Shown in pieces: positions 54,787-64,000 of a stretch of DNA of 64,000 bases; positions within the stretch are counted from its first letter, which is position 1; every line of letters starts with the position of its first letter. The notes beneath the pieces are model-generated. The model had not been told where the DNA came from and did not search any database. It saw nothing but the letters and a program-made list of their open reading frames with translations. Made by a program: the position numbers and the translations under genes. The DNA comes from Blastocatellia bacterium (lineage in GTDB: Bacteria; Acidobacteriota; Blastocatellia; UBA7656), in the NCBI GenBank assembly GCA_963765495.1, contig CAVXWP010000008.1, positions 879,534 through 943,533 of the forward strand. The letters are read 5' to 3'.

Positions 54787-55561
54787 TTAGTTTTCCCTTC
54801 CTGCCTTCAAGATTCTGTCTGCTGCGCCGAATATCTTCATTGCTGATTTCTCAGGTACACAATCACCTTTTAGCCAATGCTGGATATATCCTCTAGCGTA
54901 TTCACTGCCCGGTAGTTGTAGAGATTCAAGCACTAGCATTGCTGTGGCTTCTGCTTCTACTTCTCTGAGGTTTCTAGGCGTATGCTCGGTATCGTTAAAG
55001 TCTGCCTCTGCGGTGTGGCCTAGTTCTATATGGGCCAGTTCGTGAAAGAGAGTCTTATGAGGCATAGCGGCCACTGGTGATATTGCTATCTCTCTTTTTT
55101 GAGCGTAGCCTTGCACATTGCCATCTGTTAGGTGTGAATTCAACTTGCTGGATGTTGAGAGCAGCAAGGGCTTTCTCTTTATCCCAAGATGGTATCTCAG
55201 GCATAGCTACTGGCTCGCCATCAGTCTGACTCAAGACAAACCAATTAGGCTTCCAGACAAAGTTAGTTATTACTCTCTGATCTTCGCTACTATCTTTATC
55301 TTTGATCTTTCGAGTAAGAGGCATACATAGCCATATAGCCTTCTCGCCTTTCCTGACCTGTCGGTTTAGTTTCTTCCAACCTGGATAAGTGTTGATTGGT
55401 CCTGGCTCTATGCTTCTTAGATGACATTGAACCATAGCGGCTATTTGATTGCTCAAGCTATATCCATGAAATGCGCTATAGGCTCTCATAATCAATCCGG
55501 GCTGGTTTATCGCCTGTCGTAGTAACTCACTCCATTTGTTTGTCCATAAATCCTCCATCAA
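54787..55561 (-). CDS. ArdC-like antirestriction protein (DUF1738 ssDNA-binding + zincin metallopeptidase), frameshifted at ~55131
   Basis: FHGYSLSNQ, TYPGWKKLNRQVRKGEKAI, FVLSQTDG in one frame; TLFHELAHIELGH, REVEAE, YIQHWL in the next. Confidence 0.85.
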
Positions 55562-55614
55562 AAATCTGATTAGAAATTGGAGGGATGAGCCTTAACCCAT
55601 CCCTTCTCCATTTT

Positions 55615-56001
55615 TCAGTGAGCGTAAAGAGCCAAGTAGTATTGGCGGTCAAAGTCATAGGCAGGATGAGAGCGAACATTCTTTAGATTGAATGCCCATG
55701 CTCTTGTCTCTGCACTACGCTTGCCCCATTCGCTGAAATCGCCTTGCTTGCTGTGGAATTCGACATGGCAAGTTTCGTGAGCGGGTTCAACTTGGGTTCC
55801 GCCATTGCTCTTGTAGATAGGGTGATGGAGGTTTAAGTTTTCATCTGGCTGGATTTCGTCTTTGCAGAAATAGCAGGCCAATGGCTTATGGTCGTTTGAT
55901 TCTGCTAATTCTCTGCTTTGTTCTTGCCGTAGATAGCCAGCATGGATTTGCTGACCTATTAGAGTCTTGATGTCGTTTGCTTCGTGGGTGTATTCTCTCA
56001 T
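55615..56001 (-). CDS. HNH-type endonuclease-like protein
   Basis: CYFC..LHHPIYKSNGG..AHETCHVEFH. Confidence 0.75.
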   Translation of the reverse strand: MREYTHEANDIKTLIGQQIHAGYLRQEQSRELAESNDHKPLACYFCKDEIQPDENLNLHHPIYKSNGGTQVEPAHETCHVEFHSKQGDFSEWGKRSAETRAWAFNLKNVRSHPAYDFDRQYYLALYAH

Positions 56002-56187
56002 TGGATTTCACTATCCTTTCTGACCCGTCGCAAGCGGGTTGGATATTCAAGGGTTGAGTGTTACTAGCACTCAGCCCTTTACCTTTTAGTGTCTTGCCTT
56101 CTGGCTAACCTCAGAGTTAAAGCTACCTAATGGATTTCATAGCCTCTGGCCTGCTTTACGATGTCAAAGAACTGATCTATGAGTAAA

Positions 56188-56216
56188 ACTATACGCTTAA
56201 ACAGAGAGTTTGTCAA
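56188..56216 (-). promoter_or_regulatory. Sigma-70 promoter for the HNH-ArdC operon
   Basis: Minus strand TTGACA-17nt-TATAGT. Confidence 0.8.
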
Positions 56217-56230
56217 TAAAAATCTACGTC

Positions 56231-56259
56231 TTGACAGAGAATAATTTTGGATGTATAAA
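56231..56259 (+). promoter_or_regulatory. Sigma-70 promoter for the HTH gene (likely leaderless mRNA)
   Basis: TTGACA-17nt-TATAAA; ATG 7 nt downstream. Confidence 0.8.
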
Positions 56260-56266
56260 CAGTCTT

Positions 56267-56494
56267 ATGAAGCAACTAACGACACCACAGGCAGCAGCCA
56301 AGCTTGGCCTTAGCATTTACCGCATTCAGCAATTTATTCGTGAAGGTCGTTTACCTGCTGAGAAGGTAGGAAGAGATTGGCTGATCCGTGAAGAAGATTT
56401 GAAATTAGTTGAGAACCGCAAGCCAGGAAGACCATCAAAGAAACTAAAGGCTACAAAGAAACCTAAATCCACGAAGGAAGTTAAATCGAAGTAA
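56267..56494 (+). CDS. Excisionase-family (HTH_17) DNA-binding protein
   Basis: LTTPQAAAKLGLS..RIQQFIREGRLPAEKVGRDWLI, followed by a basic RKPGRP tail. Confidence 0.88.
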   Translation: MKQLTTPQAAAKLGLSIYRIQQFIREGRLPAEKVGRDWLIREEDLKLVENRKPGRPSKKLKATKKPKSTKEVKSK

Positions 56495-56689
56495 GCAGCA
56501 ATATTGCTGCCTGCTAACCGCATGTGGGATTTCAGGTAGCAAAGCTTTTAGACAATACCCGCGAGAATCTCGACGCGAAATTTCAATTTTCCCATACAGG
56601 CAACTTCCATTCTATCTGCCTGATTTGCGGCACCTTCTACAGATGCCTATTGAGTACAATTTGGCTGTCTATATTTGTGGACCTTTGGC

Positions 56690-56720
56690 AATGCGCGTCC
56701 GTTGGAATGAGCAGTTAGGC
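56690..56720 (-). repeat. Truncated attC (R''/L'' half)
   Basis: 30/31 identical to the corresponding end of the 85-bp attC copies. Confidence 0.75.
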
Positions 56721-56935: not shown

Positions 56936-57808
56936 TCAGTAGCGAATCGAATACACATGACAGTTCGGTAATGCATTCTTTAACTTACCCTCAATCTCAT
57001 CTTGGTTATCCTTCTCAGCACCCCAACCGACCATAATACTGTTTAGCTTGGGCAAGCCTTGAAGATGAACCAACCCAGTGGAACTGATTTGTTTAGGACC
57101 AAGTCTAAGGGATTGGATTTCAGGCAATGCCTGTAGATGTGCTAAGCCAGCATCAGTTACACCTGTTCCATCCACACCTAGTTCACGGAGATTAGTTAAT
57201 CGCCGAATATACACTAGCCCTGCATCTGTGACTTTGGCACCTCGGAGTGATAGGCACTCTAAGTTCGTTAATTCCGATATGGATTCCATCCCGGCATCAG
57301 TTACTTTTGTACCCATCAGATTCAATTCCTTTAAGCCGGTCAATCGTTGAATATTCGCCAATGCAGCGTCACCTATCATAGTACAAGTCAAATCCAATTC
57401 TTTTAGCCCGCTCAACCCTTTAATGTAGCTCATGCCAGCCTCGACGACAGGAGTTACGAGCATTGGCAGTTGCAGTCCCTGCAAATCATCTGGGTTGAGT
57501 ACCGCGAGAAATGAGAGATCGGATGATATTGGATCGAAATCAGCCTCAACCGAAAGCTTCACCTCTTTGCCGGGAGGCACGATAATTCTTCCGCTAGCCT
57601 GTTTAAACTCTTCCCAGAAAGAGTTATCACTTGGGTCTTTGATAAACAGCATTCCTACCGCCCTATTTGCTGGAAAGGAAACGCTGCGGGACTGCATTGA
57701 AAGAGCGAACTCCAAGCCCCTCTTTACCAAGCTAGATGGTTTCTCTTGAAGCTTAGTATTAGTAGGAATGAGAGAATGGGCTTTATCAGTGTTGGCATCA
57801 TCGTTCAT
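56936..57808 (-). CDS. Leucine-rich repeat protein
   Basis: 24-aa repeats LTxLKELxLxGTKVTDAGLxxI. Confidence 0.9.
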   Translation of the reverse strand: MNDDANTDKAHSLIPTNTKLQEKPSSLVKRGLEFALSMQSRSVSFPANRAVGMLFIKDPSDNSFWEEFKQASGRIIVPPGKEVKLSVEADFDPISSDLSFLAVLNPDDLQGLQLPMLVTPVVEAGMSYIKGLSGLKELDLTCTMIGDAALANIQRLTGLKELNLMGTKVTDAGMESISELTNLECLSLRGAKVTDAGLVYIRRLTNLRELGVDGTGVTDAGLAHLQALPEIQSLRLGPKQISSTGLVHLQGLPKLNSIMVGWGAEKDNQDEIEGKLKNALPNCHVYSIRY

Positions 57809-58587
57809 ATACGTTCCTTCCTTTGGATACTAGCCAATTGGCTGCGAGCCTCTGCAATTTGTCTATCTATCTGCGCAATCAATTCTCCTAGTAGATTTCG
57901 TCCCTTGGTTTCTGCATCTTCCACTTTAGCCTTCATTTGGTAAAGATCGGATGCAATTAAAAGAGTATGTTCCACCTCAATCAGTTGCAAACGATCTTCG
58001 ACTATGGCTATCCGACGTATGGCACGTATCAAGTCGGCTCCAATGCCCTGTCCTTTAAAAGACTCAGGACTAATCGGCCATTCTTTGAGAATCTTCTCTA
58101 ACATAGGTTCATTGGCTTCTTTATATGCCCGATTTGCCTCTGCCATAATCTTATGGCGCCGAACGCGTTCCTGTTCATCAGTAGCATAGTCAGGATGAAT
58201 AAGTTTGGCGACCTGATAAAAGAGTTTCTTCAACTTCTCTGAAGGCTTGAAGCAGAATTGGTCATCCAATTGTTCGCTTGCCTTGACGATGCAAGAGGTG
58301 TCTTGTGCTTGGTTTCGCAACTGTTTGGCCTTTTGTTTAGCCAGTTGATCATCTGGGTCCAAACTCGCCTGTGCTTCCGCACATTGCGCTTCAATCTCAT
58401 CAAGTTCTGCATAGCGAGTTCCTACTGTGCAGACATAGTGCGCTTCAAATGCACGTAATTCAAACTGAAGGGTCGCCAATTCTAGTTCCCGCTCTGCGAG
58501 TAGCTCTTCTAAAGCAGCCAGTTCGAGACGCTTCTTGTTTAACTCACGTTCTTCTGGTGTTTCTTGATTAATGATATTCGTCCTCAT
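57805..58587 (-). CDS. Coiled-coil protein with internal J-domain (HPD)
   Basis: LKKLFYQVAKLIHPDY..RHKIMAEANRAY flanked by coiled coils; ATGA overlap with the LRR gene. Confidence 0.88.
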   Translation of the reverse strand: MRTNIINQETPEERELNKKRLELAALEELLAERELELATLQFELRAFEAHYVCTVGTRYAELDEIEAQCAEAQASLDPDDQLAKQKAKQLRNQAQDTSCIVKASEQLDDQFCFKPSEKLKKLFYQVAKLIHPDYATDEQERVRRHKIMAEANRAYKEANEPMLEKILKEWPISPESFKGQGIGADLIRAIRRIAIVEDRLQLIEVEHTLLIASDLYQMKAKVEDAETKGRNLLGELIAQIDRQIAEARSQLASIQRKERI

Positions 58588-58656: not shown

Positions 58657-58741
58657 GTCTAACGACGAGTTCAGCGGCGCGCCGGTAGCAACGGGATAAT
58701 GATAAGGTGGAATGCGCGTCCGCTGGAATGAGCAGTTAGGC
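58657..58741 (-). repeat. attC recombination site (85 bp)
   Basis: Minus: GCCTAAC-tgctc-ATTCCAGCGGACGCGC...GCGCGCCGCTGAACT-cgtc-GTTAGAC (RYYYAAC...GTTRRRY, imperfect palindrome). Confidence 0.88.
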
Positions 58742-58771: not shown

Positions 58772-59411
58772 TCATATTCTAATCCATCCGTGTTTACGGA
58801 TCATTGCACCAAAGCTTGCCTGCAATCCCGCGTAATCTGCTCGTGATGTATCATTCAACTCAGAATGGTATGTGGTGATCGCGTTGTTAAACATATTTCG
58901 AAGAATTTTAACATCTATCACATAGACATCACTACCATCGCTTTGAAGTAGCGAGCTAGCCCCTTGTGTAAGGACGAACTTAAAAACCCTCCTCACGTTG
59001 CCACGCCGATCTCTTGTTTCTGAGTAGAGACCAAATGAGTGAAGCAGTGAGTTTCTGAGTTGGTAGAGTATTTCTGCGTCATTAGCCGAAGCACCAAAGT
59101 ATCTGTTTAGAAAATTGATGAATCTACCGCCAACCCCGTCAAGCTCTGATCCTCCAGATGTATCCTTCCCCGCCAAAAATTTTCCTAGCAGATCAATTCC
59201 TGCCAAAATGCCCAATTACACCAGGCCAAAGTGCTTTACAGGATGCTGATTCACCTGTTACCGAATCAACGCAGTTGACTAAATTACCGTTGTTTGGGTT
59301 GATACCAAAACAAGTATTGATATCTCGCCTCAATAAATACAACTGACTGTAAATGTCTCGACCGCTAGGTGCGTTTGTAGGCTCGCGGAAGAATCGTTCA
59401 ATGTCACTCAT
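58772..59411 (-). CDS. HEPN-motif protein, frameshifted at ~59215
   Basis: ORFs 59193..59411 and 58772..59215 join (WPGVMGILAGIDLLGK) if one T is removed; RNSLLH matches Rx4H; SD AAGGAG. Confidence 0.7.
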
Positions 59412-59597: not shown

Positions 59598-59682
59598 GCC
59601 TAACGCCGAGTTCAGCGGCGCGCCGGTAGCAACGGGATAATGATAAGGTGGAATGCGCGTCCGCTGGAATGAGCAGTTAGGC
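59598..59682 (-). repeat. attC recombination site (85 bp)
   Basis: 83/85 identical to 58657..58741; ends GTTAGGC. Confidence 0.88.
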
Positions 59683-59712: not shown

Positions 59713-60566
59713 TTACCAACTTCTAAATGGAATATCAGATAGTCCTACTCTGACACCATCAAGCCCTTGTCTACTGATTAACATTGAAACTGAATTCAAG
59801 GCTAATTCCCTGTGAGGTGTCGGCCCAACGATCACTTCAAACAGAGGAAAGCCTTTCCCTTCCTTCTCTAATTGGATTACGATATAGGGGGTCAGCATTG
59901 AGAGTCCTTCACGAAAGGTTATTTTAGGATTAGTGTTGGCGATTAATAGCGATATCATTCTCCACTCCCGCTCTTCACAAAACTTCGGGTGTTTGATTAA
60001 GGCGGCCTGAAAGACAAAGCGGGAGAAGAAGTCCTCGCAAGCTCTGTTAATCTTTTCTGGGATATTATCATGCCCTCAGCTAGAAAATCCTGGAAGGACT
60101 CGATAGTGGTAGCTATTAACTCACTTACAATCTCTTTTTGAGTTTCTACCTCATAAACGCATGGTGCCATTGTAAATCCTTGCTCCACCATTAATGGAAG
60201 TAATCTGTTAAAGTCGAATCCTAATGAGAAGCCATTCCCATGTGGACAGTAGCCACGCCATTGGCTAAGCAAGTCAGCATTTTCGGAAAACGAACTTACA
60301 AAAACATTCTCTTTGTTATACATAAAAAGTCGCTTTGTTAGCTCATTGAGCATTTGCTGTGTATAAATGCCTGTGCTGACGATGTACTGAATTTCATTGC
60401 GAGCTATCTCGATAGCATACGAGAATTCTAAGGAATCATTTAGGTATTCAATATTGGTGGCCCATATATATCGATTATTGACTATTCCAAGTAGGCCAGA
60501 TTGTGATGTGTAATGATATATTGGTTTGTCAGGTGTCCTGCTCATTAGTTTATCCATAATTCCCAT
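59713..60566 (-). CDS. DUF2971 family protein, frameshifted at ~60073
   Basis: IYHYTS..GLLGI, YLNDSLE, VSSFSE..DLLSQWRGY; after a -1 shift, IKHPKFCEEREWR..VIVGP. Confidence 0.85.
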
Positions 60567-62969: not shown

Positions 62970-64000
62970 GGGGTTATTCTGGAAAGCCTTTGGTAGGTTC
63001 CAAAACCATCCTTGTCCCTGTGTACCGGGCTGCCCACGTTTAACTGGTTTGATCTTTAATGCCTTCTTCGCTCTGTTTAATGTAGCATCTGAGATGCCAG
63101 CCTCGTGTGCTTCTTTTCGAATTTCTTTCTCTGGACGTTCGCCGTCAGCCAAAACTTCTCGAAGAAAATCCTGAGCATCGAGCAAGGCTGTGCGTTTCTC
63201 TTCGCTGGTTCTTGCAGCGAATATCTGTTCAGACGTTAGGCTGCTTATTCCTGTCCAATAGAAAACTCCCCCGCGTATCTCGTAGCCAATAGACTCACCC
63301 ATCTCTGCTAGATTACTCTTAATATGAACGATTGCACGCTTATCTGGATCATTGGGATCGCAGCCAGCCAATAACACAGACCGGCAGGCTGCCGTAAGGT
63401 CTATCGAGCCTATTCCGCGATAAATTGCGCGGTCCTTTCCAGCTTTTGTAAGATGCCGGATGCCAACAATCGCACAGCAATATTTCTCGGCTAATCGAGC
63501 AAGTTTTTTCATTACGGCTCGTGTCTCGTTTGCCCGATACAGATCAACACCCGCGCCAAGATATGCAACCAAAGGATCAATAACAACGAGAACAGGCTCA
63601 TGCTCAAGGATTGCAGCCTCGACCTGTAGCAGCCCTGCCTCATCGAAAGCGATTGCTCCATCTAGGGCAAAGATGCGCGAAACGTCAGCGTGCATGGAAT
63701 CTAGGCGTGGGCGAATAGTATCAGCCAGCCATCTTCGGCACTCAGTAAGAGTACGTTTCGCGGAGCAGTGGGATCACTGTCCGGTAGCCCTCGTCCGGCA
63801 GCAACGCCAGCAGCAATTGCAAAGGCGAGATAAGATTTCCCCGACCAGGATCGCCTTCAAGCAGTGTGAGCTTGCCCAGAGGTATGCGTGGAAACCAGAG
63901 CCATTTAACCTCCTCGGCCTGCACATCTCCCAAGCATATCACTCTGACAGGCAGATCATCTGAATTGCCACTAGACGCTTGTGAGGTTAGGCTTGGCTGA
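62895..64000 (-). CDS. RepA-like AAA_25 helicase/primase-associated ATPase, two frameshifts; 5' end likely beyond the window
   Basis: WLWFPRIPLGKLTLLEGDPG(x)GKS, VLLLSAEDG(L)ADTIRPRL, VVIDPL, RHLTK, GSIDLTAACR, KSNL. Confidence 0.85.

Follow-up and report, generated by a model that had tools for sequence, protein, structure and literature searches.

A J-domain-like scaffold gene translationally coupled to a leucine-rich repeat gene in a Blastocatellia integron cassette: a candidate split co-chaperone module

What might a J-domain protein and a leucine-rich repeat (LRR) protein do together when their genes overlap within one integron cassette? The question is raised by two minus-strand genes of a Blastocatellia bacterium (assembly GCA_963765495.1, contig CAVXWP010000008.1, positions 879,534 to 943,533), which lie in a stretch of 64,000 nucleotides referred to here as the window and in whose coordinates positions are given unless another contig is named. 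The first gene (57805-58587, minus strand), delimited from the list of open reading frames (ORFs), an AlphaFold2 model and the family alignment, encodes a 260-residue helical protein bearing a His-Pro-Asp (HPD) tripeptide, hereafter the J protein. The second (56936-57808, minus strand), delimited from the ORF list, Pfam and homologues, encodes a 290-residue partner made of a short leader, a cap and LRRs. The stop codon of the J gene overlaps the start codon of the LRR gene in the tetranucleotide ATGA at 57805-57808. An earlier note on this DNA, made from its letters, had recognised this coupling of a coiled-coil HPD protein to an LRR protein, and in this it was right; it had also proposed the pair as a candidate immune or sensor module, an idea that is weighed below. 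The reading that we favour, with a probability of about 0.55, is that the pair belongs to a widespread two-gene module, acting as a split J-domain co-chaperone of class C.

In order to see whether the arrangement recurs, as the earlier note had proposed to check by a neighbourhood survey, one genome per species was scanned for relatives of the J protein. A scan of the contigs with the family alignment gave 309 relatives (a scan with the single sequence gave none), from which the best 80 loci were kept, a selection biased towards close relatives of the query. A readable downstream gene was present in 79 of these loci, the remaining one having no room for it. The downstream gene started at -4 with respect to the J gene stop, that is, with the ATGA overlap, in 34 of the 79 loci, and within -11 to +12 of the stop in 63 of them. 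The homologues were thus co-located elsewhere rather than scattered, and the domains of the downstream partners varied from locus to locus. No third conserved gene and no conserved NTPase gene was seen around the pair when the neighbours were compared across the collected loci, and a scan for promoters and terminators found sites no more frequently than in shuffled sequence.

The constant part of the downstream products was their N-terminal leader. The strict motif [LIVMFA][LIVAFT]x[RK]G[LIMF], located near residue 27, was present in 67 of the 79 products, and four leaders recognised by eye with a relaxed motif and one in a frameshifted gene brought the number to 72; the other seven positions contained only short ORFs or lay in a cut locus. 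As a control, the strict motif was sought within the first 75 residues of the other ORFs of at least 100 aa in the same loci, where it occurred in 17 of 785. When a profile of the leader was run against the genome of the window, the only match at E 0.01 or below was the LRR gene under study (E 4.1e-10), which stands beside the single J gene of this family; in five other genomes, all six matches at the same threshold directly followed a J gene, and three further partial J-like matches in those genomes were without a leader. The suggestion that an SLV[KR]RGL-like leader is common to interchangeable downstream partners was therefore borne out by the 72/79 genes against 17/785 control ORFs, and the leader was found only beside J genes.

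These counts bear on the simplest alternative, namely that the genes are neighbours by an accident of how the cassette was packed and that each protein acts by itself. Unrelated genes can share a cassette, a general point with nothing specific to this pair, and the arrangement recurs in 72/79 loci from many phyla, most of them showing no sign of the attC type of the window; moreover, covalent J-partner fusions exist, one of which (P0327, below) joins a J scaffold to a relative of the window LRR protein. Contradicted already by this recurrence, by the finding of leaders only next to J genes and by the P0327 fusion, a chance pairing is highly improbable.

The J protein was predicted to be all-helical, with long helices (AlphaFold2, alignment of 30 sequences, mean predicted local distance difference test score, pLDDT, 85). 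An N-terminal hairpin is formed by helices 11-76 and 81-105, the central helices 117-130, 138-156 and 160-169 surround the HPD tripeptide (residues 131-133, 58189-58197, minus strand, from the sequence), and the C-terminal helices span residues 182-259. More than 400 relatives of similar length were found at 50-57% identity in Acidobacteriota, Chloroflexota, Planctomycetota, Nitrospirota, Bacillota, Cyanobacteria and other phyla, and 376 cluster representatives matched the family at E<1e-30. Thirty columns were invariant in the alignment of 30 sequences, the three of the HPD and 27 others, and the HPD was also kept in 42/42 aligned relatives in addition to the 30/30 of that alignment.

Evidence that this central part is a J-domain came from comparisons made with the whole family. 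A match to Pfam DnaJ at E 0.01 or below was obtained with 27 of 30 family members, and hhalign aligned the family to eight canonical J-domains of the same genome over 41 columns with a probability of 96.7% (E 3.3e-10), the aligned stretch corresponding to helix II, the HPD and helix III. The best matches of the family profile in the PDB were also J-domains (top E 0.0016). Together, hhalign, Pfam and the PDB profile place the core of the domain at about residues 113-170 (58078-58251, minus strand), comprising helix II, the HPD loop and helices III and IV, and they give good sequence evidence, at the level of the family, that the window protein is a J-domain protein. The NCBIfam search of the window J protein gave nothing meaningful, and the search of its full-length model against known folds returned only coiled-coil proteins, none at E<=0.001. 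The canonical machinery is encoded elsewhere: the genome carries 11 genes with canonical J-domains and at least two that encode a full-length Hsp70, all of them outside the window.

The partner begins with a leader of 40 residues (57689-57808, minus strand, delimited by an alignment of 70 leaders), which is hydrophilic and non-repeat and contains SLVKRGL, in agreement with the short non-repeat leader described earlier; the segments ..HSLIP.. and ..SSLVKRGLEF.. are both found within it. The aligned leaders follow the consensus M-(about 10 polar)-[LI]V[PR]-(6)-L-(3)-S-x-x-L-x-x-RGL, in which R30, G31 and L32 are at least 90% conserved among the 70 sequences; the leader has a hydrophobic core with basic flanks. 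No Pfam family covered it in the individually inspected Pfam tables. The leader is followed by the cap (residues 41-127), which opens with RxVxFPxxRxVG, and by the LRR region (residues 128-280, 56969-57427, minus strand), where LRR_6 (37.6 bits), LRR_4 (37.1 bits) and LRR_8 (34.2 bits) were above their Pfam cut-offs and LRR_14, with 40.0 bits, was exactly at its own. Five full-length homologues of the window LRR protein all had the leader and the cap motif RxVxFPxDxSxG, indicating that the LRR type is a recurring subfamily of partners, whereas LRR proteins that matched in the repeats only had signal or membrane N-termini in place of the leader. No signal peptide was visible by eye in the window LRR protein.

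Two other readings of the partner were considered and rejected. Twin-arginine translocation (Tat) signals have a pair of arginines and, after it, a hydrophobic stretch free of charges, and the leader is not such a signal: of its basic positions only the second is conserved, and charged residues come after RGL. A STAND/NLR-type sensor was discarded because Pfam finds no NACHT/NB-ARC-type NTPase domain in either protein.

What follows the leader is exchanged. Pooled Pfam searches of 70 partners found tetratricopeptide repeats (TPR) in 19, WD40 in 15 and LRR in 12. Twenty of them were also scanned individually, the other 50 entering only the pooled tallies; TPR was found in five, FGE-sulfatase in three, ankyrin, receiver (REC) and GAF-GGDEF domains in two each, and ankyrin with Sel1, WG repeats, sigma-70 regions 1.2 and 2, and WD40 in one each, whereas the remaining two partners had no Pfam family. 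The exchange depends on the distance between the J proteins. In pairs of J proteins at least 70% identical the partner bodies were related in all 36 cases; at 60-70% identity they were unrelated in 23 of 56, and at 50-60% identity in 452 of 577. Since partner bodies diverge in this way between related J proteins, the receptor is swapped while the scaffold and the leader persist.

J proteins naturally fused to a partner-like domain bear on the role of the leader. In none of eight J proteins with a C-terminal extension was the leader motif present after the scaffold, and the tails, as judged by eye only, contained LRR, Sel1, receiver, TPR and other domains. In the fusion P0327, a short linker connects the J scaffold to a region that aligns to residues 41-258 of the window LRR protein (37% identity, E 2e-37). 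Because this alignment starts at residue 41, the leader is precisely the part dropped on fusion. Rarer arrangements were also seen: a Ser/Thr kinase or a superfamily 1 (SF1) helicase is fused N-terminally to the J scaffold, and in one case a PEGA domain is fused C-terminally (P0387, P0388, P0389, P0390, P0391 and P0392), while the tail of P0358 is, by eye, possibly nuclease-like. In one partner (L013:2077-2811), nothing but sigma-70 regions 1.2 and 2 follows the leader, and the fusion P0320 has a sigma-70 N-terminal-like stretch before Sel1 repeats, which hints that some J modules touch the transcription machinery.

According to the favoured reading, the product of the first gene would be a constant helical scaffold with a functional-looking J-domain carrying the HPD, and that of the second a translationally coupled receptor subunit, whose leader of about 40 residues would dock it onto the scaffold. 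The C-terminal domain of the receptor, here the LRR, would bind a specific protein or ligand, and the assembled pair would bring the DnaK/Hsp70 encoded elsewhere in the genome to it; the module would have reached this genome as a mobile integron cassette. We infer the tethering by the leader from its conservation, its exclusive position next to J genes, the translational coupling of the two genes and its loss when the proteins are covalently fused; the stimulation of Hsp70 and the nature of the target are likewise proposals. When a complex of the J protein and the leader was predicted, the score was 0.49, against 0.39 for one control, and nothing is concluded from it.

Several observations weigh against this reading. 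The window J protein itself matches Pfam DnaJ weakly (E 0.04, 14.5 bits, cut-off 27.8), which is why the J-domain assignment rests on family-level evidence, and helix I of the canonical J-domains was left unaligned by hhalign. A model of the J-domain alone (pLDDT 75.6) had three helices around the HPD, and fold searches with it did not rank J-domains above generic three-helix bundles: Foldseek gave nothing at E<0.9, J-domains being scattered among the weak matches, and the top rows of the VIA-align wide search were generic helical bundles with Z below 8. The survey favours the close relatives of the query, as said above, and distant J homologues (about 35% identity) from other families of the same class had no leader-bearing neighbour. 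In two families, every genome sampled had a member of that distant branch, which may represent an ancestral, stand-alone form. Lastly, some partners (REC, GAF-GGDEF, sigma-70 fragment) belong to signalling and are not obvious receptors for clients.

The signalling-type partners fit instead a model where the partner itself is controlled. In one form of it, the J scaffold would use the leader as a handle for loading DnaK onto the partner, which DnaK would hold inactive or help to assemble; in another, the partner would mask the J-domain in the manner of CbpM. DnaJ and DnaK are known to control sigma-32, and partners with GAF-GGDEF, REC or sigma-70 regions 1.2 and 2 could be gated in a comparable way. 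The hydrophobic core and basic flanks of the leader resemble the pattern of DnaK-binding peptides, and the strict 1:1 pairing together with the translational coupling suggests equal stoichiometry. The CbpA-CbpM operon of E. coli, where the product of the gene downstream of the J gene binds the J-protein (PDB 3ucs title), is a known precedent. Nevertheless, the leaderless fusions are easier to understand if the leader only tethers, because fusion should not make a client handle dispensable, and most partners are repeat scaffolds, which have no activity that could be gated. We regard the control of the partner as a possible but doubtful explanation, and the split co-chaperone as the better account of the fusions.

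When the pair is set beside known systems, a split co-chaperone comes closest to the class C J-domain proteins, for which a J-domain associated with a specific interaction module has been described, at least in excerpts of PMC8215388; a DnaJ-TPR architecture class is described in part of PMC10410713. Like DnaJ-TPR, HscB and DjlA, the pair combines an HPD J-domain with an interaction module, and has no DnaJ C-terminal client-binding domains. It differs from them because its interaction module is on a separate, translationally coupled polypeptide with a conserved leader and is exchanged, within the family, among at least 10 domain types, and because its J-domain is located in the middle of the scaffold and is mostly below the Pfam cut-off. 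The resemblance to CbpA-CbpM lies in the presumed binding of the downstream product; in contrast to the variable receptors of the pair, CbpM is one conserved modulator, an inhibitor of CbpA, and no CbpM-type Pfam match was found for the partner.

F-box proteins carry an N-terminal motif of about 40 residues that docks on Skp1, followed by variable substrate receptors of the LRR or WD40 type. The combination of a constant docking motif and a variable receptor is thus also that of the F-box/Skp1 (SCF) ligases, an analogy only, with no sequence relation; the output of the pair would be the action of Hsp70 and not ubiquitylation. A J-domain and TPR repeats occur as well in a proposed bacterial conflict system, that of the GAP1-N2 GTPases, which includes HSP70, GrpE and FNIII proteins fused to DnaJ or TPR according to the sections of Kaur et al. 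2020 (PMC7159879) that describe it. Those systems are centred on the GTPase and have their own HSP70 and GrpE, whereas none of these is conserved beside the pair.

No J-protein coupled to leader-tagged variable partners was found in the literature searched, whose supplements, outside its coverage, may list the family; the gene pair, although widespread, is apparently undescribed. Because most family members are below the Pfam DnaJ cut-off, surveys based on domain architecture probably overlook it. The targeting of bacterial Hsp70 is understood for only a handful of specialised J-proteins, and this family would be a natural, modular solution to the aiming of Hsp70, spread across many phyla and with a docking element that can be tested. 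If the leader is a docking tag, it would be a simple handle to find the targets of dozens of receptor domains, and the re-aiming of DnaK in the laboratory might become possible.

How the module is carried was examined in the window itself. The consensus of attC sites consists of RYYYAAC and GTTRRRY end boxes with unpaired bases on one arm. Upstream of the pair, a palindrome search and the repeat copies of the genome identified an intact attC-type site (58657-58741, no strand assigned), which is an 85-nt imperfect palindrome with end boxes GTCTAAC...GTTAGGC and a bulged hairpin. A second site at 59598-59682 is 90% identical to it, and both have the end boxes and the bulged hairpin of attC. The extra unpaired bases are on the higher-coordinate arm, which indicates that the cassettes share the minus-strand orientation of the genes. 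The site 58657-58741 belongs to the preceding cassette, and its inner end box starts the J-LRR cassette. Downstream, a repeat match revealed one conserved arm of the cassette's own attC site (56693-56720, no strand assigned), the other arm (about 56600-56650) being degenerate, and no hairpin better than those of shuffled sequences was found at this half site (z 0.70 and -0.32). The J-LRR pair is therefore one cassette, going from the inner box of 58657-58741 to the decayed site; of the attC-bounded unit described by the earlier note, the upstream boundary stands as an intact site and the downstream one as half a site only.

The attC-type repeat had three matches in the window against 0 expected, well in excess of chance, and the same 85-nt repeat is abundant elsewhere in the genome (at least 40 scored copies, 191 candidates), with arrays on four other contigs (C2, C3, C6 and C9), two of these arrays being near tyrosine recombinase genes (C3:315816 and C6:263612). 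BLAST searches with the window attC gave matches only in the loci of its own genome. No integrase was found in the window, the sole PF00589 match on its contig falling outside it; the three sites of the window thus form a cluster that lacks an integrase, and base 64000 of the window is also the end of the contig. The G+C content falls from 0.50-0.59 to 0.40-0.46 across the attC and cassette region.

This setting is part of what gives an immune or conflict sensor its appeal. The variable domain would recognise a protein of an invader, and the J scaffold would turn DnaK on that protein, or divert or exhaust DnaK so that the infection fails. Integron cassettes often hold defence genes, and, like the anti-phage cassettes, the pair is an attC-flanked unit in a cassette-rich genome. 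Its presence in the own family is patchy, since only one of 36 other genomes has a J relative. The receptor domain is exchanged quickly, and, as mentioned above, the scaffold is in rare cases fused to a Ser/Thr kinase, an SF1 helicase or a tail that may be nuclease-like. A neighbouring cassette also encodes a DUF2971 protein with a weak match to a candidate defence family. TPR, WD40, LRR, ankyrin, Sel1 and FGE-sulfatase domains correspond to the repeat and sensor domains of conflict systems named in the portion of PMC7159879 that deals with them. Unlike the anti-phage cassettes, however, neither protein of the pair matches a defence model: the LRR protein had no match in PADLOC (PADLOC-DB 2.0) and the J protein a chance-level one (E 0.015, 12 bits). 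Neither has an effector or NTPase domain recognisable by Pfam, and the partners of the family also include the signalling types (REC, GAF-GGDEF and sigma-70 pieces).

The chromosomal setting of the relatives argues in the same direction. Twelve acidobacterial loci share one downstream ORF beside the pair, the largest shared neighbour family, which, as read by eye from its sequence, appears to be a TsaD-like housekeeping gene; this points to stable chromosomal inheritance there, and the conserved position of these loci looks vertically inherited, unlike the cargo of islands. No relative of the J family was found in a viral contig collection, which shows only that the phages of that set do not carry it. 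The proposal of the earlier note that the LRR senses a foreign protein as part of an immune module found no direct support in any of the analyses, the PADLOC check that it had suggested included, and an immune role of the pair seems to us possible but doubtful. A tentative compromise, which we rate no higher, would be that the module is a plug-in receptor system for Hsp70 that serves, on mobile elements, as an invader sensor aiming or diverting DnaK; if the immune reading were true, it would represent a defence principle without a classical effector. The split co-chaperone remains our preferred reading of the pair.

In the one relative in the own family (L088, in genome G013, contig C23), the reading frame of the J gene contains three TGA codons, and the gene is followed by an intact partner, a leader-LRR protein of 418 aa. 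The J gene may be decaying, or the TGA codons may be sequencing errors.

The remaining genes of the cassette region and its left flank were also inspected. The neighbouring cassette gene at 59997-60566 (minus strand) encodes the DUF2971 protein, of 189 aa, whose weak PADLOC match (E 5e-5) is to PDC-S31, a PADLOC candidate defence family. Two small cassette ORFs, 58772-59215 and 59713-59958 (both minus strand), encode products of 147 aa and 81 aa, respectively, for which neither Pfam nor PADLOC gave a match. Left of the attC cluster, an excisionase-type HTH_17 gene (56210-56494) and an HNH-like ORF (55615-56001) were found, and an ArdC-like gene is split there into two overlapping ORFs, one with the N-terminal domain (55055-55561) and the other with the metallopeptidase part (54787-55167). 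The stretch 54787-56494, at which the G+C content goes from 0.59 to 0.42-0.46, possibly consists of remnants of a mobile element.

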